From Burkholderiales bacterium (GTDB taxonomy: Bacteria > Pseudomonadota > Gammaproteobacteria > Burkholderiales > JAHFRG01), in NCBI GenBank assembly GCA_035543335.1, contig DASZZH010000025.1, positions 184,185 to 248,184 of the forward strand: 64,000 bases of DNA, written 5' to 3'. This document shows, piece by piece, positions 5,335 through 51,521 of the stretch. Under the pieces are notes generated by a model. That model did no database searches and was not told the DNA's origin. It saw only the letters and a list, made by a program, of their open reading frames with translations. Each line of letters starts with the position of its first letter. Within the stretch, counting starts at the first letter, position 1. Position numbers and translations under genes: made by a program.

Positions 5335-6611
5335 CCAACGAGGAATTATTTCAGCGGTCGCAGCAATTCATCCCGGGCGGCGTGAATTCGCCGGTGCGCG
5401 CATACCAATCGGTGGGCGGCGTTCCGCGCTTTATCGCACGCGGCCAGGGCGCGACGGTTTTGGACGCGGAAGGGAAAAGCTATATCGACTACGTCGGCTC
5501 GTGGGGGCCGCTGATAGTCGGCCATGCCCATCCTGAAGTGGTCGCCGCCGTGCAACAAGCGGCGGAACGCGGCTTGAGCTTTGGCGCCCCCACCGCAACC
5601 GAACTGGAAATGGCCGAGTTGCTGTGCAGGTTGGTACCCTCCATGGAGCAGGTGCGGCTCACCAGTTCCGGCACCGAAGCGACGATGAGCGCCATCCGCC
5701 TCGCGCGCGGCTTCACCCAAAGAAGCCGCATTATCAAGTTCGCCGGCTGTTATCACGGCCACGCCGATGCGCTTCTGGTCAAGGCCGGCTCGGGGGCGCT
5801 CACTTTCGGCCAGCCCGATTCCGCCGGCGTGCCCGTCGAGACTGCCGCGCACACTTTGGTACTTGAATATAACGACAGCGCAGCGGTGGAAAAAACCATG
5901 AGCGAATTCGGCAATCAAATCGCCGCGGTGATAGTCGAGCCGGTGGCCGGCAACATGAATCTGGTCAAGCCCAGGCCCGAATTCCTGCAAACGCTCCGGC
6001 GCCTCTGCACCCGACACGGCGTGCTGCTGATTTTCGACGAAGTGATGACCGGATTTCGCGTGGGCCTCGGTGGCGCGCAAGGGCTTTATGCAATCAAACC
6101 CGAACTCACCACGCTCGGGAAAATCATCGGCGGCGGCATGCCGTTGGGCGCATTTGGCGGCAGACGCGACATCATGCAATGGCTGGCGCCCCTGGGTCCG
6201 GTATACCATGCGGGAACACTCTCAGGCAACCCGGTGGCGGTGGCCGCGGGGCTCGCCACGCTTAAACTTGTTCAAGCGCCCGGTTTTTACCAAAAACTTT
6301 CCGGGGTGGCCGAACGTCTCACCGCCGGCTTGAGCGCCGCCGCCCACAAGCACGGACTGGCTTTTTCAGCGCAAGCCGCAGGCGGAATGTTCGGCATTTA
6401 TTTCCGCCCAAACCCGCCGCAAAGCTTTGCCGAAGTCATACAGTGTAACCAAGTCCTGTTTAACCGCTTCTTTCACGCCATGCTCGACCGGAGTGTTTAT
6501 TTTGCTCCTTCGGCGTTTGAAGCCGGCTTCGTTTCCAGCGCGCACGGCGACGAGGAAATCGCCGCCACGCTCGCCGCGGCGGAACAGGTTTTCGCCGGCC
6601 TTAAATCATGA
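5331..6611 (+). CDS. hemL: Glutamate-1-semialdehyde 2,1-aminomutase
   Basis: 426 aa with [19 protein letters not shown] and TLGKIIGGG (PLP lysine region). It overlaps the thiE stop by 4 nt. Confidence 0.95.
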
Positions 6612-8346: not shown

Positions 8347-10374
8347 TTATTCCTTGATGAGTGCGGCGATTGCTTGCCGATGGCGCTCAAATTCGTGCTC
8401 GAAGTCCAGCGTCTTGCGGTTGCTGGACATGGCGAATAACAGATTACCGTGTTTGACCAACAACCAGATGCGGCGTTCCCGCAGGTAGAGCATGGCGAAC
8501 ACGCCCAGTACCAGCAGCACCGATCCGGTATATACGATATTCTTACCCGGCGAGCGGGTCAATTGCAGTCCGCTCGCCTTGACTTCCTGGTAGTCCGCGA
8601 GCTGCAGATAAACCGGTGCGCCGTAGATGAAGCTGTCGTTGATGGCATTCAAGGCGTCGCCCACAAACAGCACAGTCTGGTCGTTGATTGCCGCCGGCTT
8701 CAAGCCCGCGTCGCGGCGCACCATTTGCAGCGCCTCGACTGCCGCGCTTTGCAGAATCTTGACATAAATCGTTGCGACTTTCTCCTGCTCCAGCTGCGGC
8801 ACCGATTCCTTGAGAAACGCATCGAGCGCGGCATAGCCGTCGCGGACGAACATCTCCAGGACTTTTTCGGTGCTGGCAGTGAGCTTGCTACGCATGGTTT
8901 CACTCACCGCATCCCCCTGCATGGCGGTGGCCGCGAACCGGCGCGCGATTTCGTCCCCCGCCTTGGGGTCAAACAACAGCGCCCGCAGTTGCATGTAAGT
9001 GTCCAGCGTGCCCTGTTCATCCAGCGGCAGGCGCAAATAGCGGAACGGTTCGTTGGGATCGGAACGCACACCACTTAACATAAAGCCGCGATTATCGATT
9101 TGCACCGGCAGCATGTAGTTGTTGAATTCCATAGCCTGGCCTTGCGCGTCGCGAAGTTTATACTGGAAGCTCGGCCCGACATTGCGCAACTGTTTGTTGC
9201 CCTCAATATTCGCCGCGGGACCCAGCAATTTTCGCGAGAGTCCCGCTTCCTGGGGCATGTCGCGTCCGCCTATGTTCTCGACGTTGAACGGACGGAAGTC
9301 GGTGAATTCCACGTCGTATGCGTTGTTTTCCGTGACCAGGGGCGCCACCTCATGCACCTTGCCCTGCAATCGGGAAGGCTTGCTGGTTTTGGATAACAGC
9401 GGCCACACCTGGAGATTCAGGCGGGTGCCGCCGTCGGAAAAACTCGCCTGGTAAATGGCGACGCCCCGGTAAATCAGCGGGTGGTTGACGGTGATGGTGT
9501 GTTCAAAGGATTTCCCCGTTTCCCTGTCGGTCACGACCAAATCGCTGGCGAAGGTTTTGGGCTGGCCGGTGCTGTAATGCTCGATGTAAAACTTTTTCAC
9601 CCCGATGCCGAAGGGCAGCTCCTGCACCATGTAGCCGTCGCGCACGTTGAGGAACGCCACGTCGGCGCTTGCGCCTTCCGGGATGGTGACATTGCCGCGG
9701 AACGAAAGATTGGAAGAGGACAAGCGGCTTTGTGGCGGCACCTGGCTTTGCGGGACGTCGCGTGTTTCGATGGTTTTGTTCCCGAGCCATTCCTGCAGTT
9801 TCAACGGTACATTGCCGTCCATCAGCCCGCCGATGCAGATAATCACGACTGCCGCATGCGCGAAAATATAGCCCAGGCGCTGCAGGCTCTCGGTCTTTGC
9901 TGCAACCAGCAATCCATCCTGACCCGATGCATTGGTCTTGCAGCGATAGCCCCGGGCGCCGAGGTAAGCAGCGGCGCGCAGGGCTACCGCGTCCGGCTTC
10001 AATGCATGGGAGAACTCCGCGCGATGGGCGAACAGCCGTAAGGATTTTTCCGTTGCGTGCTCGCGGAAACTTCTCATCTCGCGCAGCATCAGCGGCCCGT
10101 TGCGGTAAACGCACAGGCTGGTGGAAGCGACCAGAAAACACAGTATCGCCAGAAACCAGCCGACATGATACACGTCATAAAGCCCGAGCTTCTCGAACAA
10201 GGCAAACCAGAACTGGCCGAATTGCGTGATGTAGTTGGGATACGGCTCGTTTTGCCGCAGCACCGTCCCTATCACCGAAGCGATGCCGAGCACGGTGAGC
10301 AGGCTGATGGCAAAGCGCATCGAGCTTAACAGCTCATACCAGGCTTGACTTAAATTAGAGGCAGGCTTGACCAT
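8347..10374 (-). CDS. ccsB: Cytochrome c biogenesis protein CcsB/ResB (System II)
   Basis: About 675 aa with N-terminal TM helices and a large periplasmic domain, located upstream of ccsA. The ATG at 10374 is preferred over the GTG at 10398. Confidence 0.8.
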   Translation of the reverse strand: MVKPASNLSQAWYELLSSMRFAISLLTVLGIASVIGTVLRQNEPYPNYITQFGQFWFALFEKLGLYDVYHVGWFLAILCFLVASTSLCVYRNGPLMLREMRSFREHATEKSLRLFAHRAEFSHALKPDAVALRAAAYLGARGYRCKTNASGQDGLLVAAKTESLQRLGYIFAHAAVVIICIGGLMDGNVPLKLQEWLGNKTIETRDVPQSQVPPQSRLSSSNLSFRGNVTIPEGASADVAFLNVRDGYMVQELPFGIGVKKFYIEHYSTGQPKTFASDLVVTDRETGKSFEHTITVNHPLIYRGVAIYQASFSDGGTRLNLQVWPLLSKTSKPSRLQGKVHEVAPLVTENNAYDVEFTDFRPFNVENIGGRDMPQEAGLSRKLLGPAANIEGNKQLRNVGPSFQYKLRDAQGQAMEFNNYMLPVQIDNRGFMLSGVRSDPNEPFRYLRLPLDEQGTLDTYMQLRALLFDPKAGDEIARRFAATAMQGDAVSETMRSKLTASTEKVLEMFVRDGYAALDAFLKESVPQLEQEKVATIYVKILQSAAVEALQMVRRDAGLKPAAINDQTVLFVGDALNAINDSFIYGAPVYLQLADYQEVKASGLQLTRSPGKNIVYTGSVLLVLGVFAMLYLRERRIWLLVKHGNLLFAMSSNRKTLDFEHEFERHRQAIAALIKE

Positions 10375-35823: not shown

Positions 35824-36825
35824 TCACTTCATCTGGACAACGACCTTCCCTTTGGCCCGGCCCATCTCGAGATACGCAAGCGCCTCCTTCGCTTGATCGA
35901 ACGGAAATACCTTGTCGATCACCGGCCGAATGTTCCGCACCTTGAGAAGCTCGCCGATCTCTGCGAGTTGGCTACCGTCTGGATTCACGAGCAGGAATGA
36001 ATACTCGACGCCTCGTTTCTTGGCGAGGCGATGCATCTTATAGCTCAGCAACCACAGCGCGAACACCATGAGAAAGTTCATGCCCCGCGTCCGACCGAAC
36101 GCGGCGTCAGGTGGCCCGACGATCGAGACGACGATGCTCCCCTGCCTCAGAATCTGGAAGGATTTCTCAAGCGATTCGCCCCCGAGGGTGTCCAGGACGG
36201 CATCGTAATCCCGCAGGACATCCTCAAATTTTTGCTTCTGGTAATCGATCACCTCATCGGCTCCCAGGCTCCGCACCAGATCCACGTTGCCGGCGCTGGT
36301 CGTCGTCGCCACCTTGGCTCCGAGGTATTTCGCGAGCTGGATCGCGAACGTGCCAATGCCTCCAGCGCCTGCGGGGATGAATACCTTGTGGCCGGGCTTG
36401 ATGTGTGCACGCTCCTTAAGCGTTTGCCATGCCGTCAGTGCGACCATCGGCATGGAGGCCGCTTGCACGAAGTCCAGGTGTGCTGGTTTCAGCGCGGCGG
36501 CGTTCTCGGCTACAACCGCAAACTCAGCGAGAGCGCCCATGCGTAGCCCATGGATGCTGGCGAAGACAGCATCGCCCGGCTTGAAGCGGGTGACACTACC
36601 GCCCACCTCCACCACTACACCTGCCAAATCGCTGCCCAGCGTGGCCGGTAACTGAAACCGGAGGATGGCCTTCATTTTTCCACTCCGGATCTTGTTTTCG
36701 ACCGGGTTTAAGCCAGCAGCGTGGACCTGAATGAGAATTTCGTTCGGCTTGGGCACTGGTCGAGGAATGTCAGCAAACGCGACCTGATCCAGTCCGCCAT
36801 AACGTTTGAAGACAAGTGCTCTCAT
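35824..36825 (-). CDS. Medium-chain dehydrogenase/reductase, NADPH:quinone-oxidoreductase-like, cassette-borne
   Basis: 333 aa. GLNPVE, cofactor motif AGAGGIGTFAIQLAK, and no structural-Zn Cys cluster. Confidence 0.85.
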   Translation of the reverse strand: MRALVFKRYGGLDQVAFADIPRPVPKPNEILIQVHAAGLNPVENKIRSGKMKAILRFQLPATLGSDLAGVVVEVGGSVTRFKPGDAVFASIHGLRMGALAEFAVVAENAAALKPAHLDFVQAASMPMVALTAWQTLKERAHIKPGHKVFIPAGAGGIGTFAIQLAKYLGAKVATTTSAGNVDLVRSLGADEVIDYQKQKFEDVLRDYDAVLDTLGGESLEKSFQILRQGSIVVSIVGPPDAAFGRTRGMNFLMVFALWLLSYKMHRLAKKRGVEYSFLLVNPDGSQLAEIGELLKVRNIRPVIDKVFPFDQAKEALAYLEMGRAKGKVVVQMK

Positions 36826-36886
36826 GTTTCCCTGTGTTCGAGGTATTCGGACCTAATGGCTGCGTTCACAGCATGCGCGTAGCAGC

Positions 36887-36967
36887 GCCTAACGTCCCGC
36901 ATGAGCGGCCAAGCGAGCGGGCGAAGCCCGCTTGCGAAGGTCCGCCTCGATGCGGCGGTTAGTTGGC
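36887..36967 (-). other. attC of cassette 3
   Basis: Minus strand R'' GCCAACTAAC (36967-36958) ... R' GTTAGGC (36893-36887). R'' is exactly complementary to the cassette's own 5' end GTTAGTTGGC (37329-37320). Confidence 0.75.
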
Positions 36968-37291
36968 AGCATGCTTCTGCGGCAAGTTGCGATACCCCCA
37001 ATGACCCTCGGTCCGAGGTGCCGGAGTGCCGCGCCCACGCTGGCGGTAAACCAACACGTAGCCGACCTGAGGTTCCAAGCATAGCGCCCAAACGACTGTG
37101 TAGCCACGACGCGTGAAGTTTATCTTCAAATGACCTCGCGCCTCGAGTTCGATGAGCTTTCGTTCTGGGTCCTTGGGTTTCCGTGGAATTGGCACCATGC
37201 GAAGTCCGAGTGTTTGGACGGACTGCCGAATCCCGTCGTAGTCTGCCACTACGCGCGCGAGTTCGGTCGGTGGAAGGGCCTTCATTGGCAT
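36959..37291 (-). CDS. Hypothetical cassette protein (110 aa)
   Basis: ATG at 37291 preceded by GGAG at 8 nt. The TAA stop lies inside the attC R'' core. No family recognised. Confidence 0.5.
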   Translation of the reverse strand: MPMKALPPTELARVVADYDGIRQSVQTLGLRMVPIPRKPKDPERKLIELEARGHLKINFTRRGYTVVWALCLEPQVGYVLVYRQRGRGTPAPRTEGHWGYRNLPQKHAAN

Positions 37292-37320
37292 GTTCGTCAC
37301 TCCTAGTGGTTTTCCCAATG

Positions 37321-37418
37321 CCAACTAACGTTCCCAGCAACCGGCGCGCGCCCACCGCCCCTGGCGAAGCACGACGCTCGCGCGCGCGTCCGGGTTGGCT
37401 GGGGGGTTAGTTGTCACC
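37321..37418 (-). other. attC of cassette 2
   Basis: Minus strand R'' GGTGACAACTAAC (37418-37406) ... R' GTTAGTTGG (37329-37321). R'' is exactly complementary over 13 nt to the cassette 5' end GTTAGTTGTCACC (38116-38104). Confidence 0.8.
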
Positions 37419-37419
37419 G

Positions 37420-38100
37420 TCATTGCCCCTTGATAACCAGCATTGGTCGATGTCTTTCCTCGTCGTAGCTCACGGTGACAAGTTCCAGTGGCTCAGTGAT
37501 ATTGCGATCTGACCCAGTATCTCTCATGCGGAGGGTATGGGCGTCACAGCTCTGAACGACACAATCGCTACGCGTCCGGTAGCGCTGGTCGGCTATGTGC
37601 TCTGTGCTCCCGAGCTTGTGCTGCACACAGATGACTGTGATAGGCCCGCCACGCATGCGAAGGATTGCAGCGACTTTGTCGTTGCGACTTGCAATTAGCT
37701 CTTCAAAGAGCTCGAGAGACGCTGCTACGGACTCTGAACCGCGGCGCACAAAGGCCGGTCCCGAGAAATGCGGGCGGTTCTTGCTGTGAGCAACTACAAC
37801 CGCGAGCACGGGCTTGCCATCTACGTTCAACACCTCTGAAGCAAATGCGATGGGCGGATAACACACGCGTTCGCACTGCTCTCGGACCGTTTTTTGGAGC
37901 TTGTCCGGGTTCTCAACGCCCTGAATCTTTCCGTCGTTGTGTACACCGATAAAGAGAACCCCCGAACTGTCGGGAGGCACACTATTCGCAAATGCTGTGA
38001 TCGTCTGCCTGATCTCGGAGGCATTGACGCCGTCCGGCTTGCGCTCGACGAAGTTGTCCTCGTGATTCTTGAGCCGTCCCGTCAGAGCGTCTTGGGCCAT
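37420..38100 (-). CDS. AlbA_2 (Schlafen-like) domain protein with an unrecognised C-terminal domain, cassette-borne
   Basis: 226 aa. HEDNFVERK...ITAFANS...GVLFIGVHNDGKIQGV...FVRRGSES matches the remembered AlbA_2/PF04326 pattern (ExxxEFK, AFaN, GGxlxiGVxDdGxixG, R.gs.t). The last 90 or so residues are unassigned. Confidence 0.7.
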   Translation of the reverse strand: MAQDALTGRLKNHEDNFVERKPDGVNASEIRQTITAFANSVPPDSSGVLFIGVHNDGKIQGVENPDKLQKTVREQCERVCYPPIAFASEVLNVDGKPVLAVVVAHSKNRPHFSGPAFVRRGSESVAASLELFEELIASRNDKVAAILRMRGGPITVICVQHKLGSTEHIADQRYRTRSDCVVQSCDAHTLRMRDTGSDRNITEPLELVTVSYDEERHRPMLVIKGQ

Positions 38101-38108
38101 CTTGGTGA

Positions 38109-38169
38109 CAACTAACGTGTCCGCGTGAGACGCGCGATAGCGTCGTTCTCGACGCGGGGGTTAGCTGGC
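38109..38169 (-). other. attC of cassette 1
   Basis: Minus strand R'' GCCAGCTAAC (38169-38160, containing the ORF's TAA stop) ... R' GTTAGTTG (38116-38109). R'' is complementary to the cassette 5' end GTTAGCTGGC (38635-38626). Confidence 0.8.
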
Positions 38170-38625
38170 ACGCCAGACTTCATAGAGTGATTTCTCCCCC
38201 AAGAGCCAAACGCGACGATACGGACCGTCCTGTGCATCAAGTTGCTGCCGAAGCGACGCGAGAATCATGTCGTCCGTTGCCACAACGCGCGCGTTGGTAT
38301 AGCACAGCAATTCAAGCGGTCGGTCTGTGCGATAGGTTTTGGCCAGTTTCTTGCGTGCGATCGAGGCAGAAGGGTCTGAGATAGATAGCACGATCTCTCC
38401 GCGTCCCTTTAGAAGAGCGGATATGTTGGCAGCGAGCGTGCTTTCGCAAATCTCCGTGAGTTCGAATGCAACGGTGCCTTCACCTTCAATCATGCACGTT
38501 ATATCTGGTTCGGATTCACCCGAATGCTTGGTAACGGAGTCCGGCACAATCGACAACGCTGCCTTCCTCCGAAACTCTTCGAATACGGATAGCTCGACGG
38601 TGGATTGGCGCTCTGCTGAGTTCAT
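38161..38625 (-). CDS. Hypothetical cassette protein (154 aa), attI-proximal
   Basis: The ORF fills the first cassette exactly. The ATG starts 10 nt after the crossover G and no SD is visible. No family recognised. A weak PD...E.T nuclease-like pattern (EPDITC...AFELTE) is speculative. Confidence 0.6.
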   Translation of the reverse strand: MNSAERQSTVELSVFEEFRRKAALSIVPDSVTKHSGESEPDITCMIEGEGTVAFELTEICESTLAANISALLKGRGEIVLSISDPSASIARKKLAKTYRTDRPLELLCYTNARVVATDDMILASLRQQLDAQDGPYRRVWLLGEKSLYEVWRAS

Positions 38626-38796
38626 GCCAGCTAACTAAAAATGGGCACCAAAAGTGGTGCCTAATCTGGCGAATTCTGCCTTTTGCGGTGTCATCCTGCA
38701 AGTAATTCAATCCGTTATAGAGATTCAAGCGATAAAAAATATCGCAAAACACACCAGATGATGAGACAAGTGATTGACAATAAACACCATTCATTA
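38626..38796. other. attI region with the attI x cassette junction and the divergent promoter region
   Basis: The junction core GTTAGCTGGC (minus strand) at 38635-38626 sits between intI and the first cassette. Promoters were not confidently located. Confidence 0.5.
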
Positions 38797-39770
38797 ATGC
38801 AACCGGCAAAACCCAAGCTGCTTGATCAGGTCCGTGCCGCAATCCGCTGCCGGCATTACAGCCGCCGCACCGAAGACACTTATATCCACTGGATTAAGCG
38901 CTTCATTTTCTTCAATAACAAGCGCCACCCGGAACAGATGGGGGAGACGGAAATTACGGAGTTTTTGAACCACTTGGCCGTCGAGCGTAATGTCGCGGCC
39001 GCTACCCAGAATCAGGCGCTCTCTGCTTTGCTGTTTCTGTACCGCGATGTGCTGGAAAAAAACTCGCGTGGCTTGATCAAATACAGCATGCGAAGAAACC
39101 GGTTCGGCTTCCCACCGTGCTTTCCCCCAGCGAAGTTCAACGGCTACTCTCCGGGCTGGATGGATCAAAATGGTTGATGGCCAGCCTGCTTTATGGCTGC
39201 GGTCTGCGGCTGATGGAATGTTTGCAGTTGCGCGTCAAGGATGTGGATTTTGCCTATCGCCAGATAATCGTTCGCGATGGCAAAGGCGGGAAAGACCGCG
39301 TAACCGTGCTGCCCGAGCGTTTGCTCGAACCGCTGCGCGACCATCTCGGCAAAGTCCGGCTGCTGCATCAGCTGGATCTTGCTTCAGGGCACGGCGATGT
39401 GTATTTGCCGCATGCGCTCTCTGTAAAATACCCGCGCGCCGGCTACCAATGGGGCTGGCAGAATGTGTTTCCGTCGAAAAATCTTTCCGCCGACCCCGAA
39501 TCAGGCGTCATCCGCAGGCATCACCTTGACGAGAAATCCTTGCAACGCGCGGTAAAGCAGGCGGCTACGCGAGCAGGCATTCTCAAGCCGGTAAGCAGCC
39601 ACGTGCTGCGTCATTCATTCGCCACGCACCTGCTGCAAAATGGCTACGACATCCGAACGATACAAGAACTGCTCGGTCACTCTGATGTGAGCACTACCAT
39701 GATTTACACTCATGTGATGAATCGCGGCGGAAAGGGCGTGCAAAGTCCGATTGATGCCCTCCCGCTTTAG
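38797..39770 (+). pseudogene. intI: Integron integrase IntI, disrupted by a frameshift in an A7 run (39056-39062)
   Basis: The N-part KPKLLDQVRAAIRCRHYSRRTEDTYIHWIKRFIFF ends out of frame. The C-part is in another frame with [27 protein letters not shown] and [12 protein letters not shown]...[14 protein letters not shown]. It also carries the IntI-specific insertion [17 protein letters not shown]...[11 protein letters not shown]. Removing one A restores ...[29 protein letters not shown]. Confidence 0.85.
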
Positions 39771-44389: not shown

Positions 44390-45454
44390 TCACCCTTCGT
44401 CTTGCACCACCGTGTAGGGATCGGCAGGCTTGTCTGGATTGGTCCGCGTAAGTTTCAGGCTCTGCGGATTGTAGGGCGGGATGCATGATGCCAGGCGCGT
44501 TTCCACGCTCCAATGAACCTTCGGGAATTTGTCGAGGCTGTTTACATCGCGCACTTTTCTTTTGGTGAGCGCCATGATGCCTTGGCGCGAATTGCGCAGC
44601 TCGCCCCAAGGATTGGGTTTCAGCCGCAAATCTGCAAGCGTATTCCCGTCAAACCCGAGTCCGTTTATTTTGGCCTTGGCGATTATCCAATTCAGCGCCA
44701 GATCCGAAAGACCGGTGTCCGCATAACCGCCGCCGACATTCGAATGCACGCCGCAAAACCAGACCTGCTCAATCCCATCGCGGTCATCCCATAAAGTAGG
44801 CATGAATTCCGCGCGCTCCTCGTCCAGCGCCACCGCGTGGTAGCCGTGCCTCACCTGCGGATGAAGAGCGGTGTCATGAAAGCGCTCGATCCAGCGGTTA
44901 ATACCCCTGAAGAAAATCAGCGGGATACCCAGCGCGCCCACGGTATCCCACACGCCTATCATCTCGATGTCAGTATCGTAGGAATGCGCCTGTTTGAACG
45001 CTTTCTTCTCCTCGGCATCGCCGTGGCGGTACACAAGATACGCCTCCTGAATGTTTTGCCTGCGCTCCTGGTCCGGCCAGTTCAGGTCATCGCGCAAAAC
45101 CCCGCACGCCACGATGAATCCGCCCAGACTGCGGGCAGTATAAGCGCCGCGGCTGAAGCCAAACAGGAACAGCCGGTCGCCTGCCTGGTAATTTTTGACG
45201 ATGAACTCATAGCAGTCCTTGATGTTTTCGGATAAGCCAATGCCAAGCAGGCCGCCCAGAATGCGCGTGCCGAAATTGGTGCCCACGCCCGAATCGTAAA
45301 AAAGCGCCTTTCCTTCGCTTTTTGACTCGCGCCCGCTGGTTCCGCCCAGCGCTTTAAAAATCTTGAAAACATTGGTCGGTGCGGGCTTGCCGCGGTCTTT
45401 TTCTGACGGCTTGTTCCAGGTACCGTCGGCGCAAACGATGATATCTTTAGGCAT
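44390..45454 (-). CDS. DUF2235 (Tle1-like alpha/beta hydrolase) protein
   Basis: IVCADGTWN at the N-terminus, nucleophile elbow GFSRGA, and [10 protein letters not shown]. Confidence 0.8.
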
Positions 45455-45521: not shown

Positions 45522-45941
45522 ATGAAAACTCATCGCCAGGAATTGCTATTTAAAACCCCCACCAAGGAAGCGTTCATCAACATCACCCCGCAAGTCGAGG
45601 AAGCGCTGAAGGCAAGCGGCGTCAAGGAAGGACTGGTGCTGGTCAACGCGATGCATATTACCGCTTCGGTGTTCGTCAATGACGACGAGCGGGGCTTGCA
45701 CAGCGACTTTACCCGCTTTCTGGAGGGGCTTGCTCCCCACCAACCCATCAAGCAATACCGCCACAACGACACTGGCGAGGACAACGCCGATGCCCACATC
45801 AAGCGCCAGCTATTTGGGCGCGAAGTCGTGGTTGCAGTGACTTCGGGAAAACTGGATTTCGGCCCTTGGGAGCAGATTTTCTACGGTGAATTCGACGGCC
45901 GGCGTCCGAAGCGGGTGCTGGTAAAAATCATCGGGGAATAG
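45522..45941 (+). CDS. yjbQ: YjbQ/UPF0047 family protein (secondary thiamine-phosphate synthase)
   Basis: 139 aa. [18 protein letters not shown] and [24 protein letters not shown]. Confidence 0.85.
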
Positions 45942-46038
45942 ACCGCCCTGCTCCTAAAGGGTATAAGGGCTTACCGCAAATTGCTTCACGGGATAAACTG
46001 TCTTTAAATGAAGGTAGAAAGGCGATTCCGGAGGGAAC

Positions 46039-46788
46039 ATGAGACTGCATATTCTCAGTAACCTGCACCTGGAGTTAGGCGATTTCGTCCCGCCTGACAC
46101 CAGCGCGGACGCGGTCATTCTTGCCGGGGATATTCATGTGCAGGAACATGGCATTGACTGGGCAGTTAAACACTTTTCGGTGCCTGTCTATTATGTCCTT
46201 GGGAACTACGAGTTCTACGGCGGGCATCTTGAGCGCACGGTGAAGCGGCTCAAGCAAAAAACCGCCGGCACAAACGTACGCGTGCTCGAGTGCGATGAAG
46301 CTATTCAGGAGAACGTTCGCTTTTTGGGCGGCACCTGTTGGACGGACTTCTCGGCAACCGGCAATCTCCAGCTGGCCATGTCGGATGCGCGCCAGACGAT
46401 GAGCGATTACCGCGAAATCCGGGCCGGCATGGGCTTTCGCAAGCTTCGTCCCGAAGACACCCAGAAGAAGCACACCGAATTCAAGGCATGGCTGCGGAAA
46501 AAACTCAATGAGCCCTTTGACGGCAAGACGGTTGTGATTACCCATCACGCGCCATCCATTCTGTCAATTGCGCCCGAATACCTGGACGAGTTCACTCACG
46601 GTAGCGCGGCTTATGTCAACCGCATGGAGCACCTGATGGGCAAGCCGGTTGCGCTCTGGGTGCACGGCCAGACACACAGCAAGTTTGACTATGAGATTTC
46701 GAGTACCCATGTGGTGTGCAACCCGCGCGGCCACCATGGCCTCAGGCTCAACAAGCAATTTGACCCTCGGCTGGTGATAGAGCTTTAA
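46039..46788 (+). CDS. Calcineurin-like metallophosphoesterase
   Basis: Metal-ligand motifs LSNLHLE, AGDIH, GNYEF, THHAP and GQTH. Confidence 0.75.
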   Translation: MRLHILSNLHLELGDFVPPDTSADAVILAGDIHVQEHGIDWAVKHFSVPVYYVLGNYEFYGGHLERTVKRLKQKTAGTNVRVLECDEAIQENVRFLGGTCWTDFSATGNLQLAMSDARQTMSDYREIRAGMGFRKLRPEDTQKKHTEFKAWLRKKLNEPFDGKTVVITHHAPSILSIAPEYLDEFTHGSAAYVNRMEHLMGKPVALWVHGQTHSKFDYEISSTHVVCNPRGHHGLRLNKQFDPRLVIEL

Positions 46789-46809
46789 AGTTCGCGCCTT
46801 ATGAGAGAA

Positions 46810-46865
46810 GCGAATTTGACGGCCGCCGCTGCAAAAGGGTACTGGTGAAAATCATCGGGGAGTAA
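46810..46865 (+). pseudogene. Detached copy A of the yjbQ 3' end (56 bp, with its own TAA)
   Basis: It encodes ...[16 protein letters not shown]. It aligns to 45886-45941. Confidence 0.75.
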
Positions 46866-46883
46866 TGGTTGCGACACCCGGGC

Positions 46884-47888
46884 TTACGCCAGGAGATACC
46901 GGCCGGACTTTCGCGTACCCTCGCGCTTGACCAAATCCGCTTCCATGAGCGGCCGTAGCAAGTCAATCGCGCCTTGCTTGGAGACACCTAACCCATCCCA
47001 GATTTCCTTGGGACTCATGCTGCCCCGCTCACGAAGCAGTTGCAGCAATTGCTCCTGTTTGGGTCGCAGCACCAGTTTTTTTCCTTTCGACTGAGCCGAC
47101 AGACCTTGCACACGCTTCCAGACCTGCTGGAGTGTCAGCAATAATCCTTCCGCAGCGTATTCCAGCCAAGAGGTCAGATCATCGCCTTGCTGCGGCACGG
47201 CCCGCAGGGCCGCGTAATAACGAGGCCGGTTCTCCCAGTAGTACTCGTCCACCGAGAAAATGTGGTGCGTATCGAACCCGCGCCGGTACAACTCCCATAG
47301 AGCCAGCGCGCGGCCCGTCCGTCCATTGCCGTCAGCGAAAGGATGAATGGCTTCGAACCGATAATGGACGATCGCGGAACTGATAACTGGCGACAATATC
47401 CCCGATGTCTTGTTCCACCATTGCAGAAACTCAAACATGAGACCGGATACCTGCTCCGGCGGCGGTGGCACGTATGAGCCCACTCGAACCTGCGTTGTGC
47501 GGTAGCGTCCTGCCTCTCCCTGGTTCATCACGTTCCCCGCGATGATTTTGTGAAGCTTGAGGACATCCTCGTGGGTGATGAGACTCTTCTTGGCGTGCTT
47601 CTCGAGATGCCGCAGCGCCGCAAAATAATTCAGCACCTCCCGCTTGTCCCGGGTGCTGACCGTCGCCAGTTCGCGGCCCTCCTCAACGGCCCGCACTTGT
47701 TCAAGAGTCAGCGGATTGCCTTCAATCGCCGTCGAGGAGTGCGCGAGGCGTGCCCGCGTGTCCTTCTGCAACGTCGGAATCCAAGGCACTTCGACTGCGG
47801 CGTTCACAATCCAACCCCGCAGCGCCGCTATTTCTTCGACGCGGGTAAGCAACTGCGGGGTGATGGTGAACTTCGGCTGATAGCTCAT
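46884..47888 (-). CDS. Fic-family protein (AMPylase-type) with a C-terminal winged-helix domain
   Basis: Fic motif HPFADGNGRTGRA, an N-terminal inhibitory-helix motif STAIEGN ([ST]xxxE[GN]), and a C-terminal wHTH-like tail. Confidence 0.9.
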   Translation of the reverse strand: MSYQPKFTITPQLLTRVEEIAALRGWIVNAAVEVPWIPTLQKDTRARLAHSSTAIEGNPLTLEQVRAVEEGRELATVSTRDKREVLNYFAALRHLEKHAKKSLITHEDVLKLHKIIAGNVMNQGEAGRYRTTQVRVGSYVPPPPEQVSGLMFEFLQWWNKTSGILSPVISSAIVHYRFEAIHPFADGNGRTGRALALWELYRRGFDTHHIFSVDEYYWENRPRYYAALRAVPQQGDDLTSWLEYAAEGLLLTLQQVWKRVQGLSAQSKGKKLVLRPKQEQLLQLLRERGSMSPKEIWDGLGVSKQGAIDLLRPLMEADLVKREGTRKSGRYLLA

Positions 47889-47908
47889 GGCGCTGAGCTT
47901 ACGCCGTA

Positions 47909-47937
47909 AGTCAAGTATAAGTCAAGTTATCAGTCAA
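47909..47937 (-). promoter_or_regulatory. Three direct TTGACT repeats upstream of fic (candidate promoter or operator)
   Basis: On the minus strand: TTGACTgataacTTGACTtatacTTGACT. The 11-12 bp spacing ends about 20 nt before the fic ATG. Confidence 0.35.
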
Positions 47938-47967
47938 CCTGTGGCTCAAGCAGCGGCAAGACTTGCC

Positions 47968-48117
47968 CTATAGTTCGCCTTTGAACGCATGGTCGAGGAT
48001 GGGAGGAAGCAGAGCGTCGAGTTCGGCGGCGGTTTCGGCTTGCGGACGTTTAAGCTCGTCGGAAAGTCTCAACCGATTCGTTCCCAGAAAGGGAGCGATA
48101 ACCCCCAATTTAGGTAA
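47968..48117 (-). pseudogene. hsdS: Remnant of a type I restriction-modification specificity subunit (HsdS) C-terminus
   Basis: My manual translation gives ...[35 protein letters not shown]. The AF(K/R)GEL ending is characteristic of HsdS. There is no start codon or N-terminal domains. Confidence 0.5.
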
Positions 48118-48130
48118 TTACGACCTAGCT

Positions 48131-48248
48131 GCCGAAGTCGTGGTCGCCGTCACCGGCGGCAAGCTCGACTTCTGGCCCTGGGACCAGATTTTCTACGGCG
48201 AGTTCGACGGCCGCCGCCGCAAAAGGGTGCTGGTAAAGATTATCGGGG
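48131..48248 (+). pseudogene. Detached copy B of the yjbQ 3' part (118 bp, no proper stop)
   Basis: It encodes [38 protein letters not shown]. It aligns to 45819-45936. Confidence 0.75.
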
Positions 48249-48313
48249 CAAGGCTCGAACTAGGGGCCCGGATTAAATAAAGCCCGCAGACCAAACCTGA
48301 CGTGTTGCAACGA

Positions 48314-50143
48314 TTATTCCACCGTCACCGACTTGGCGAGATTGCGTGGCTTGTCCACATCGGTACCCCGTTGCAGTGCGGCGTGATAGGCGAGGAGCTG
48401 CAGCGGCACAACGTGGAGTATCGGGCTCAAATAACCCGCGTGCTCCTGCATGCGAATGACGTGTATCGCCTCGCCTTCCTGAACGCGGGAGTCGGCGTCA
48501 GCGAAAACGTAAAGCTCGCCGCCGCGGGCGCGGACCTCCTGCAAGTTTGACTTGAGCTTTTCGAGCAGCGCGTCATTAGGCGCGACCGCTACCACCGGCA
48601 TGTCCTGGTCCACCAGCGCGAGCGGGCCGTGCTTCAATTCTCCCGCCGGATAGGCCTCGGCGTGGATGTAGGAAATTTCCTTGAGCTTCAACGCGCCTTC
48701 CATGGCGATCGGATAATGAATGCCGCGCCCCAAGAACAGCGCGTGCTGCTTCACCGCGAATTTCTCCGCCCAGGCCATCACCTGCTTTTCCAGCCCCAGC
48801 ACGTTTTGCACCGCAGTCGGCAGATGGCGCAGCGCTAAGACCCATTCGGCTTCGCGCTCCTTGCTTAAGCGCTTGCGCTGCTTGGCAAGGACGAGCGCGA
48901 GCAGAAACAGCGCGACCAACTGGGTGGTGAAGGCTTTGGTCGAGGCGACGCCGATTTCCGGCCCCGCCCGGGTCATGAACCTTAAGCCCGATTCGCGAAC
49001 CAGCGCCGATTCGGGAACGTTGCAAACGCACAGCGTGTGCACGTGGCCGAGCGATTTGGCGTGCTTCAACGCCGCCACGGTGTCCGCCGTCTCGCCCGAT
49101 TGCGAAATCGTAATCACCAGCGCATCGGGATTAGGCACGCTGTCGCGGTAGCGGTATTCGCTCGCCACTTCGACGTTGCAGGGCAGGCCGGCCAGTCCCT
49201 CCATCCAGTAGCGCGCCACCAGGCCGGCGTGAAAGCTTGTGCCGCAGGCGACCATCAGCACGCTTTTCACGCGCGCGAGAGTTTTCGCCGCGCCAGGGCC
49301 AAAGATTGCCGGCGTGAGCGCCGCGCCGTACATCACGCCTTCCAGGGTGTCGGCAATCGCGCGCGGCTGCTCGTGGATTTCCTTTTCCATGAAATGGCGG
49401 TAGGTTCCGAGCTCCGCCGTCTCCGGGCTGAGATTGCTCACGTGCACCGGCCGCTCGACCTTTTTCCCCCTGGCGTCGTAAATCGTATAACCGGAAAGCT
49501 CGATGTCGGCGACGTCGCCTTCTTCGAGGTAAACCATTTTCTGCGTCACCGGCAGCAGCGCAGACGCGTCGGAGGCGAGGAAATTTTCGCCGACGCCGAG
49601 CCCCAGCAGCAGGGGACTGCCTTTGCGGGCGCACACCAGATGGTCCGTCGCATCGCCCGCAATCACGCCTATCGCATAGGCGCCGGTGAGTTCCGCCACC
49701 GCTTTCTGCGTCGCGGTCAGCAGATTTTTTTCGCGCTCATAGTAATGATGGATGAGGTGGGCAATCACCTCGGTGTCGGTGTCGGAAGTAAACTCGTAGC
49801 CGAGTTTCTTCAGCCGCGCGCGCAGCACCTCGTGGTTTTCGATGATGCCGTTGTGAACCACCGCCAGCGTGCCGCCGCTCACGTGCGGGTGGGCGTTCTT
49901 CTCGGTGGGCGCACCATGCGTCGCCCAGCGGGTGTGAGCGATGCCCAGCTGTCCCTGCACGTTTTGTTTTTGCGCCTGGTTGCTCAGTTCGGCGATACGG
50001 CCCACGCTGCGGATGCGTTTCAAGCCGCCGTTAATCACCGCGAGGCCGGCCGAGTCGTAGCCGCGATATTCGAGGCGGCGCAGGCCTTCGAGCAAAATCG
50101 GCACGACGTTATGGCGGGCAATCGCCCCGACTATTCCACACAC
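48314..50143 (-). CDS. glmS: Glutamine--fructose-6-phosphate aminotransferase
   Basis: N-terminal MCGIVG (Ntn Cys), SIS domains and the C-terminal LAKSVTVE. Confidence 0.95.
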
Positions 50144-50153
50144 GGTTTACTCC

Positions 50154-51521
50154 TCACTCCTTACTCCTCACGGTTTTCCTCACCGGGCGCTTCCAGCCGC
50201 TCACTGATACCTGCTTCACCCGCGAAATCGTGAGCTCTCCCGCCGGCGCGTCCCGGGTCACGGTGGTGCCGGCGCCGATGGTCGCGCCCTTGTGCACGGT
50301 CACCGGCGCGACGAGTTGGGTGTCGGAGCCGATGAACACGTCGTCTTCAATTACCGTGCGGTGCTTGTTTGCTCCGTCATAATTGCAGGTAATCGTGCCC
50401 GCGCCGATGTTGACGTTTTTGCCGACCGTGGTATCGCCGACGTAGCTTAAGTGATTGGCCTTGCTTTTAAGGCCGACGCGGCTGTTCTTCACTTCGACAA
50501 AATTGCCGATATGCGCCCCAGCATCCAGCAGGGTTCCGGGGCGGATGCGTGAATAAGGTCCGACACGGCAATCCCTGCCGATTTCCGCGCCTTCAATCAC
50601 GCAATAAGGCAGAAGCTCGGTTCCCGCTGCAATTTTCACGTCTTTCAGCACGCAATACGCGCCCACTTTAACATTATTGCCCAAGGCCACGGCGCCTTCG
50701 AAGATACAGCCGATGTCGATTTCCACGTCCCGCCCGCAGGCGAGCTCGCCGCGAATATCAATCCGTTCGGGATCGGCAATAGTCACGCCCTGCTCGAGCA
50801 GTTGATGAGCGCGCTCCGTTTGATACAGGCGCTCAAGTTGCGCAAGCTGCGCTTTGCTGTTGACGCCCAGCGTTTCCCAAACATGTTGCGGTTGAACGGC
50901 GGAAACTTTAACTCCGTCCTTGATCGCCAGCGCCACCACGTCGGTAAGATAGTATTCCTTCTGCGCGTTTTTGTTTCCGAGCTTGCTTAACCAGCCCGGG
51001 AGCTGCGACGTGGGAAGCGCCATGATGCCAGTGTTGACTTCGCGGATTTTTTTCTCCGCCGCACTCGCGTCTTTCTGCTCGACAATGCGCACCACATTAC
51101 CGTCTTTGCCGCGCACGATACGGCCGTAACCGGCCGGGTCATCCAGCTCCACCGTCATCAGCGTGAGTTGGTTGGGCTTGAGCATGCGCTTGAGCGTGTC
51201 TGCCGCGATCAACGGCACATCGCCGCACAACACGAGAGTGATTCCGTCCTTGACCAGCTGCGGCAGCGCCTGCTTCAACGCATGGCCGGTGCCCAGCTGC
51301 GGTTCCTGCTTCACCATCACCGCTCCATCGCCACCGAAGCGTTCAGGCACGGCGTTGCCGCCGAGGCCGTACACCACGCAGAGTTTCGCGGGCTTCAACG
51401 CGCGCGCGCTTTCCAGCACATATTGCAGAAGCGGCTTTCCGGCAAGCGGGTGCAGCACCTTGGGCAAATCCGAGTGCATGCGCTTGCCCAGGCCGGCGGC
51501 GAGGATAACGATATTCAACAT
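50154..51521 (-). CDS. glmU: Bifunctional UDP-GlcNAc pyrophosphorylase / GlcN-1-P acetyltransferase
   Basis: LAAGLGKRM and C-terminal left-handed beta-helix hexapeptide repeats. Confidence 0.95.

Follow-up and report, generated by a model that had tools for sequence, protein, structure and literature searches.

Detached, foreign-type copies of the yjbQ 3' end around a Fic gene next to glmS in a Burkholderiales bacterium: possible relics of attachment sites

A stretch of 64,000 nucleotides from a Burkholderiales bacterium (contig DASZZH010000025.1), in the following called the window, was analysed with respect to the interval between yjbQ, a highly conserved gene of the UPF0047 family, and glmS. 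The 3' end of yjbQ occurs there three times, once as the end of the resident gene (copy A) and twice detached from it (copies B and C). A gene for a metallophosphoesterase (MPE) is located between copies A and B, and a gene for a Fic protein together with a remnant of hsdS (in the following Fic-hsdS') between copies B and C. The features of the interval, in coordinates of the window, are the following.

45522–45941, plus strand: resident yjbQ, ATG at 45522, TAG at 45939–45941, 139 amino acids (aa), UPF0047/TIGR00149 family
45821–45941, plus strand: copy A, the native yjbQ 3' end, with the signature FDG-RRPKR and the TAG stop
45961–46805, plus strand: MPE cassette of 845 bp, consisting of a conserved upstream region of ~80 nt, an open reading frame (ORF) of 249 aa at 46039–46788, and 17 nt downstream
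46810–46865, plus strand: copy B, consisting of the 17 terminal codons of a non-family allele of yjbQ and TAA (46863–46865)
46884–47888, minus strand: ORF for a Fic/DOC protein with a C-terminal winged helix (PF02661, 2.2e-22)
46884–47939, minus strand: Fic unit including the 50-nt operator-like region upstream (47889–47939), which contains three TTGACT repeats
47968–~48085, minus strand: 3' remnant of hsdS, about 30–40 codons, truncated near the left edge of copy C
48131–48248, plus strand: copy C, an intact stretch of 38 codons from a non-family allele of yjbQ, with the signature RRRKR and 87% G+C at third codon positions (GC3)
48249–48313: spacer of 65 nt between copy C and the glmS stop, unrelated to the DNA downstream of glmS in relatives
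48314–50143, minus strand: glmS, the right conserved flank

The resident gene was assigned to its family by PF01894 (E=1e-36) and TIGR00149 (115 bits, cut-off 67.75), and its product is 94–96% identical in amino acids to those of the family relatives. It is followed after 1–19 nt by the MPE cassette, which is inverted, and this after 4 nt by copy B (tail positions -56 to the stop). Another 18 nt lead to Fic, its operator-like region, the hsdS remnant, copy C (-118 to -1) and, after 65 nt, glmS. All three copies have the same orientation, and B and C flank Fic-hsdS'. Copy B (56 nt) reads in frame, and its stop is 18 nt away from the convergent Fic stop. Copy C (118 nt) has no stop at the usual place; its frame continues for 10 more codons, and 65 nt separate its end from the glmS stop codon (48314–48316).

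A repeat search gave the pair 45821–45936 and 48133–48248 (116 nt, 78% identity) and a family of three members at 45886–45936, 46810–46860 and 48198–48248, within which A and B are 78% identical (11 of 51 positions differ) and C and B 86% (7 of 51). This search, as well as direct reading, agrees with a previous reading made from the sequence alone (the sequence-only reading), which had placed three yjbQ 3' ends at these positions and counted about 7 differences between the detached copies and 10–11 between these and the resident end. In a tblastn search of the whole window with the yjbQ tail, C was found with E=5e-20 and B with E=7e-8, and no further copies were detected. The extension of the tblastn match of B back to 46785 (LKFAPYER) was dismissed as a chance similarity, since 46789–46805 is homologous to the downstream flank of MPE in relatives. 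The identical arrangement was present in three independent Logan assemblies, which excludes an assembly artefact. Exact-protein look-ups of YjbQ, of the product of a neighbouring Tle1-like gene and of GlmS gave matches only in the same strain.

Since the copies are direct repeats of the same orientation and lie near the gene, one could think of decay in place, either of a yjbQ paralogue in tandem or of a locally duplicated segment. Such decay was simulated as the neutral drift of a local duplicate, with the gene itself under constraint. Copies A and C differ by 25 nt, of which 20 are at third codon positions, and by 4 aa; about 14 aa changes would be expected from the model, and four or fewer were obtained in none of 2588 matched simulations. 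The 11 nt differences between A and B, 8 of them at third codon positions, cause a single aa change in 17 codons, against about 6 expected (p about 3e-4). This almost purely synonymous divergence excludes neutral decay of a local copy; in both comparisons the detached copy has the properties of a functional, mostly synonymously diverged substitute, as would be carried by an element. The copies also have sharp edges against unrelated DNA. Full-length second or third yjbQ genes, which the sequence-only reading had named as the sign of a decaying paralogue, were looked for in the relatives; every relative locus carrying yjbQ has a single full-length gene.

A short signature separates the copies further. 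FDG-RRPKR was present in all 12 family relatives, in copy A and in an older relic of yjbQ described below, whereas C reads RRRKR and B reads RRCKR, which is one C>T change away from RRRKR. In 84 diverse loci from elsewhere the consensus is RRRKR (40 loci), and only 3 loci have RRPKR. The synonymous bias and the family signature together imply that the copies are not local duplicates, as had been suspected from their divergence alone, and decay in place appears highly improbable.

Copy A is 85% identical in nucleotides to the yjbQ tail of the related locus L089, close to the value for the whole gene (87%). Copies B and C are only 76–78% identical to A, which equals the distance to tails from other phyla; across phyla, yjbQ tails have 75–86% nucleotide identity. 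The working gene has thus kept its own end, and the detached ends came from elsewhere: these sequence comparisons show that the resident tail A is native and that B and C, which read intact, are the ends of yjbQ alleles from outside the family. The suggestion that an incoming element had supplied a replacement end and displaced the old one is not borne out, since the resident tail is native (85% identity to the L089 tail, RRPKR) and the detached tails are of foreign type. GC3 was also considered for placing the donors, and the differences were too small for this purpose.

Relatives of the locus, with 82–86% GlmS identity, were obtained by look-up and by a metagenome scan with MPE. In L089, L090 and L099 a decayed yjbQ tail of native type was present, with its stop 6–7 nt from the glmS stop; L095–098 contain a more decayed version of it, and L091 perhaps a trace. 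Since this native relic adjoins the glmS stop, the ancestral yjbQ and glmS must have been convergent and almost touching. The aligned loci show that they were a few bases apart in the ancestor of the family. DNA was then inserted inside the last ~100–120 nt of yjbQ, stranding the old end beside glmS, with a new end brought in at the same time or later, and MPE came to lie between yjbQ and the stranded end, where it became fixed.

Between the old relic and yjbQ the relatives have from one gene (MPE) up to ten called genes. The stretch from MPE to the relic contains nothing in L089 and L099. In L091 it contains six called genes, including those for a protein kinase, a cupredoxin, an FTR1 permease and a DoxX protein, and in L095 a block like that of L091 plus DctPQM, with yjbQ no longer adjoining MPE. 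All relatives covering the interval are without B, Fic-hsdS' and C. A fully empty yjbQ-glmS junction, which was to be sought in related genomes, was however present in none of the relatives, which carry MPE, the older relic and sometimes more genes. The old relic is absent from the window. Copy C was considered as the family's old relic and ruled out because of its different spacer, its intact coding sequence and its foreign signature. Local alignment of the 65-nt spacer with the relatives gave the same score as shuffled sequence.

Two further observations concern the surroundings of yjbQ in these loci. The 5' side of the gene varies: a Tle1-like DUF2235 phospholipase is encoded here (44390–45454, minus strand), TauE in L089 (13435–14124) and Lipase_3 in L091 (18841–19803), and beyond the variable gene a Macro-YggU-SDR block is conserved, so that the DNA is variable to either side of yjbQ. 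In L095 (21231–21600; also in L096 and L098) MPE is followed not by yjbQ but, 360 nt downstream, by a gene for a protein of the beta-lactamase fold, where the locus ends; the first 15 nt past the MPE stop in L095 match the window and not L089.

The MPE gene (Pfam Metallophos/Metallophos_2) had been regarded as the cargo of a decayed islet of 0.9 kb. In 13 relative contigs, from the loci L089, L091–093, L099 and L106–L115, however, MPE (83–91% aa identity) is convergent with yjbQ, with 16–22 nt between the stops. The cassette matches L089 11967–12806 in blastn plus/plus with 89% identity, while the matches of yjbQ and glmS are plus/minus; a weaker similarity to the upstream flank of L089 and L099 may reach to about 45943 on the left side of the cassette. 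The cassette is inverted relative to yjbQ and glmS in this window only, in comparison with every relative. By this synteny, MPE is a long-resident neighbour which was flipped here, and not a recently acquired islet. At the two breakpoints of the inversion there is a short inverted repeat, CTCCTAAAGG (45951–45960) and CCTTATGAG (46797–46805), which is too short as proof. When the inversion is undone, B follows the upstream flank of MPE (...GCAGGGCGG), where L089 and L099 have ...GACGGGCGG, 22 nt and then the old relic. In the reconstructed order before the inversion, B therefore occupies the position of the old relic.

About 40–75 nt upstream of the MPE start, at 45966–46001, a motif of ~35 nt (GGGGCTTACGGCAAATCGCGTCCCGGGATAAACTGT) was noticed which is kept upstream of MPE in every relative (L089, L091, L095, L099 and L106–L116), while the surrounding non-coding DNA is not conserved. 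Rfam gave no match to this motif, which probably binds a regulator. Rfam scans and promoter/terminator scans of the yjbQ-glmS interval gave nothing.

The Fic gene and the hsdS remnant were found at this locus in the window only and were absent from all sampled relatives. By comparison of the loci they are shown to be the only DNA at the locus which the sampled relatives lack, bracketed by B and C. Homology of the Fic unit between loci begins exactly at 47939 and stops at the stop codon. Fic homologues of ~80% identity are solitary and occur in other contexts (ffh-Fic, FAD-monooxygenase-Fic); among the contexts checked, none adjoined yjbQ, and a yjbQ-Fic donor locus was not found. Of the hsdS remnant, the last 29 aa align with the extreme C-termini of the solved HsdS chains 5ybb_D and 3okg_A (E=0.011), and no Pfam or NCBIfam match was obtained.

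The 50 nt upstream of Fic (TTGACTGATAACTTGACTTATACTTGACTTACGG) are near-identical in L101 (6593–6642), L103 (7953–8000) and L117 (4609–4658), although the Fic coding regions of the loci sharing them are only 77–78% identical; the region is probably an operator for the winged-helix domain of the protein itself. In L101 a different type of bracket exists around the same Fic gene: a perfect 33-nt repeat containing a palindrome (CAGGAATGCGCTGACGAGCGTCATCGCATTCCT) is present at 6346–6378, overlapping the ffh stop, and at 8745–8777, and its copies, 2.4 kb apart, enclose Fic and an ORF of 271 aa.

Tails of yjbQ apart from the gene were also found elsewhere. A genome scan with the YjbQ protein gave 80 loci from many phyla, none of them syntenic with glmS, since YjbQ is too conserved to select relatives. 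In one of them, L013 (Chloroflexia), yjbQ is followed by an ORF of 86 codons and, 870 bp downstream, by a second, decayed tail of ~225 nt. A search with the peptide of copy C detected L118–120, where a vapB/PIN (vapBC) pair lies between two tails, the first from -111 to -1 with CAG in place of the TAG stop, the second from -63 to the stop. In L118–120 and L013 the architecture seen in the window occurs independently, in two unrelated lineages. A DNA-pattern scan of viral contigs yielded L136, with a free-standing yjbQ tail of 66 nt (22 codons) and a hairpin after it, 415 nt from a gene for a XerC/D-like tyrosine recombinase (Phage_integrase, 9.6e-40). On the other side of the tail there are phage replication genes (AAA_24, Gam-like and helicase), and the contig contains no other piece of yjbQ. 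The left boundary of this tail (-66) matches that of the right-hand copy in L118 (-63). By its position the L136 tail looks like a phage attachment site, attP, carrying a replacement gene end.

Other searches gave full-length genes. The viral scan with the whole protein detected only one phage-borne yjbQ, in L084 (3881–6597), located between the gene of a small serine recombinase and that of a large one which starts 3 nt past the yjbQ stop; this neighbourhood is suggestive only. In two of the three DNA-pattern scans of viral contigs, full-length phage copies alone were found, and the phage and plasmid collections contained only distant full-length homologues. In L144, L145 and L146 full-length yjbQ is located among phage genes. 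A search with the C tail and its 10-residue extension gave no yjbQ with that extension. In a protein collection (P0242–P0360), hundreds of ORFs of 42–84 aa made of the yjbQ tail were noticed; most start at an internal Met or follow frameshifted sequence and look like products of contig ends or frameshifts, and a few, among them P0290, P0310 and P0250, start near VVVA(V/I)T after unrelated sequence, like copy C. In a pangenome survey of Vibrio cholerae, 'yjbQ' is listed among the insertion sites of mobile genetic elements and defence islands (bioRxiv 10.1101/2024.07.25.605194). Enterobacterial YjbQ, with which the comparison was made, is only ~28% identical to the protein of the window; the V. 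cholerae site is a lead and may not be equivalent.

Copies B and C are most likely scars of mobile DNA inserting into the end of yjbQ. Fic-hsdS' is flanked by direct repeats of the 3' end of a target gene, as are found around elements integrated in this manner. The best explanation, which we consider as likely as not, is that a small hot spot of insertion, built on the yjbQ 3' end, exists between yjbQ and glmS, in which B and C are relics of attachment (att) sites framing an integrase-less Fic-hsdS'. They would stem from one or two integrative elements, for which the yjbQ 3' end would have served as the bacterial site, attB, and whose attP would have carried a copy of the yjbQ end, keeping the target gene whole after integration, a layout as seen in L136. 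The element may have entered at or beside the old relic, where B is located in the reconstruction before the inversion. Later deletion of the integrase and of most of the element would have left an integrase-less islet between two att-like repeats, resembling a cis-mobilisable element (CIME). Homologous recombination mediated by the flanks, to which the mosaic structure of glmU-glmS described below would testify, and one inversion could then have reshaped the locus and removed the old relic.

Several results weigh against this explanation. No integrase or integrase remnant was found within 45942–48313 by inspection of ORFs and family search; an integrase gene beside an att-like site is present only in the unrelated viral contig L136. 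In the genome scan a second tail was present in one of the 80 diverse loci (L013) and an integrase beside yjbQ in none, and the four viral scans gave only one integrase-linked tail. Copy C is without a stop, and the relatives contain no match to the DNA on its right. The hsdS gene is truncated within about 45 nt of C, and this junction looks like an illegitimate join or the end of a deletion, rather than a clean end of an element. The left boundaries of the tails vary: -56 (B), -63 (right copy of L118), -66 (L136), about -99 (L089 relic), -111 to -120 (C, left copy of L118, L095 relic) and -226 (L013). These values could represent two classes, at about -60 and about -115, from very few cases, or simply scatter. 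With such variable boundaries and a truncated hsdS, a purely site-specific history is not supported. The relatives, moreover, keep MPE beside yjbQ and have the variable DNA between MPE and glmS, an order not expected from serial integration into the functional tail. One- and two-step models of integration, with the crossover to the left, in the middle or to the right of the tail, were also tried, and none gives a native A, a foreign B and a foreign C with its missing stop. The history must include deletion, the inversion and probably homologous exchange.

Of the proposal that yjbQ is a hot spot of serial integration, one part persists: its 3' end has been entered repeatedly, as is evident from the older relic, L013, L118–120 and L136. 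The islet with MPE and the replacement of the resident end could not be upheld for this locus, and the search for integrases associated with yjbQ 3' ends had a divided outcome, with the tyrosine recombinase by the free tail of L136 on the one hand and none beside yjbQ in the 80 loci on the other.

An explanation without any site-specific recombinase has to be weighed here. Sliding identity to L099 is 91–97% in 49880–49580 (glmS) and 50770–50170 (glmU) and 70–80% elsewhere; for the final 150 nt of glmS, L100 and L091 come nearest (87–90%). This pattern indicates that glmU-glmS (48314–51521) is a recombination mosaic, with recent homologous recombination between diverged lineages. A foreign block from another yjbQ locus could have been imported by homologous or homology-facilitated illegitimate recombination, with the highly conserved yjbQ tail, or else the old relic, as one anchor and glmS as the other, so that the donor tails would have arrived together with Fic-hsdS', and the truncated hsdS would be a broken or illegitimately joined end. 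The mosaic, with its 3' end nearest to other lineages, agrees with this, as do the cut of hsdS at the C junction and the variation of left boundaries among tails; with 75–86% nucleotide identity between phyla, the tails appear usable as anchors. In addition, the stop of B is 18 nt from that of Fic, like a native convergent pair, and since B and C are both of foreign type, one imported block is simpler than a single integration. Yet a tail beside a tyrosine recombinase in the phage-like contig L136 is left unexplained, a prior event in the donor is still needed to make the C fragment, and a donor arranged in this way was not found, since the nearest homologues of Fic have other neighbours. Import by recombination is a serious rival, the main one, and is tentatively held as the less likely of the two.

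Because the interval is also the region downstream of glmS, a Tn7-like or other glmS-targeted element has to be considered, as well as the capture of cassettes by an integron integrase located nearby. Tn7-like elements are marked by tnsABC(D), end repeats, an insertion about 25 bp past the glmS stop and a 5-bp duplication. Between yjbQ and glmS, family search gave matches for the MPE and Fic ORFs only and for nothing resembling a transposase or a Tns protein, and the repeat search revealed no end motifs that recur; this agrees with the previous statement that Tn7 features are not visible. The old relic abuts the glmS stop intact in relatives, so that nothing was inserted at the Tn7 position. 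The integron integrase, at 38758–39770 (plus strand), is frameshifted, with the N-terminal part in one frame and the C-terminal 217 aa, which match TIGR02249 with 342.8 bits (cut-off 265), in another. It lies just upstream of argS, 6 kb from the yjbQ-glmS interval, and is the only recombinase gene among the ORFs examined, but between it and yjbQ there are housekeeping and other genes, among them argS, dsbA, one with a SPOR domain and one of the SDR family. Repeats resembling attC did not come to notice, although attC sites were not searched for systematically. A role of Tn7-like elements or of the integron at this site is hardly to be expected. Beside the integrase there are small leftward ORFs (36822–38625, minus strand), one of them with an AlbA_2/Schlafen domain, and L089 has a run of small unannotated ORFs on the same side of argS. 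The integrase and the small ORFs of the window probably constitute a degenerate chromosomal integron, in which a quick look revealed no attC-like repeats.

A wider interpretation, which appears doubtful to us, is that the yjbQ 3' end serves as a landing pad across phyla, where tiny integrase-less islets (Fic, vapBC, MPE) framed by tails travel between distant genomes. Recombinases specific for yjbQ would mobilise the islets in trans, or homologous recombination between tails would suffice to move them. Relic tails left stranded could act as decoy attachment sites, where new DNA enters and the working gene stays untouched; this would explain the presence of B at the place of the old relic. The flipped MPE cassette might then be a by-product of the same recombination, or a switch driven by it.

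Among known systems, e14 and phage 21 integrate into the Escherichia coli gene icd at its 3' end and carry a substitute 3' end of this protein-coding target in attP; after integration an intact gene, the element and a detached gene-end fragment, differing mostly synonymously, are present. The window resembles these cases by a detached gene end and by the mostly synonymous difference. There, however, an integrase is present and the boundaries are fixed, whereas here an integrase is missing, the end of the resident gene is native, and there are two detached ends of unequal length, with boundaries unfit for one simple integration. In Streptococcus thermophilus, the integrative and conjugative elements (ICEs) ICESt1 and ICESt3 and the CIMEs are located at the 3' end of fda, the latter being integrase-less islets flanked by gene-end att sites. 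Arrays of attL, element, internal att, element and attR arise by accretion and decay, and mobilisation in trans has been shown for CIMEs. An integrase-less islet between att-like repeats made of a gene 3' end is what the window has in common with them; in the family, however, the search for an intact, related ICE or phage at yjbQ gave none.

The islands at the 3' ends of tRNA and tmRNA genes (Williams 2002, 2003) are comparable in that a highly conserved target 3' end is duplicated with each integration. Tandem and decayed islands and boundary classes which depend on the integrase exist there as well. Here the target is the end of a protein-coding gene, with 75–86% nucleotide identity across phyla. 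For V. cholerae, a gene of the same name is listed as a hot spot which frequently contains defence islands, and the cargo found in this work (Fic and hsdS; vapBC in L118) has the same flavour, but the survey names the sites by the neighbouring gene and gives no att anatomy (bioRxiv 10.1101/2024.07.25.605194). The finding would thus be an event of a familiar type, at a site about which little has been described; it works like the cases of gene-end integration, with membership in that group partly shown.

Two cautions follow for the interpretation of similar loci. That a gene lies between two repeats does not make it recent cargo, as the case of MPE shows, and site-specific integration can be imitated or overwritten when conserved flanks recombine homologously. 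The locus also provides a worked example of how a pattern of synonymous changes, together with a family signature of a single codon, separates native from imported gene ends. With the 3' end of yjbQ, a highly conserved gene of the YjbQ/UPF0047 family, the results would extend to a protein-coding target the range of conserved sites which gather small defence or addiction genes, such as Fic, restriction specificity genes and vapBC.

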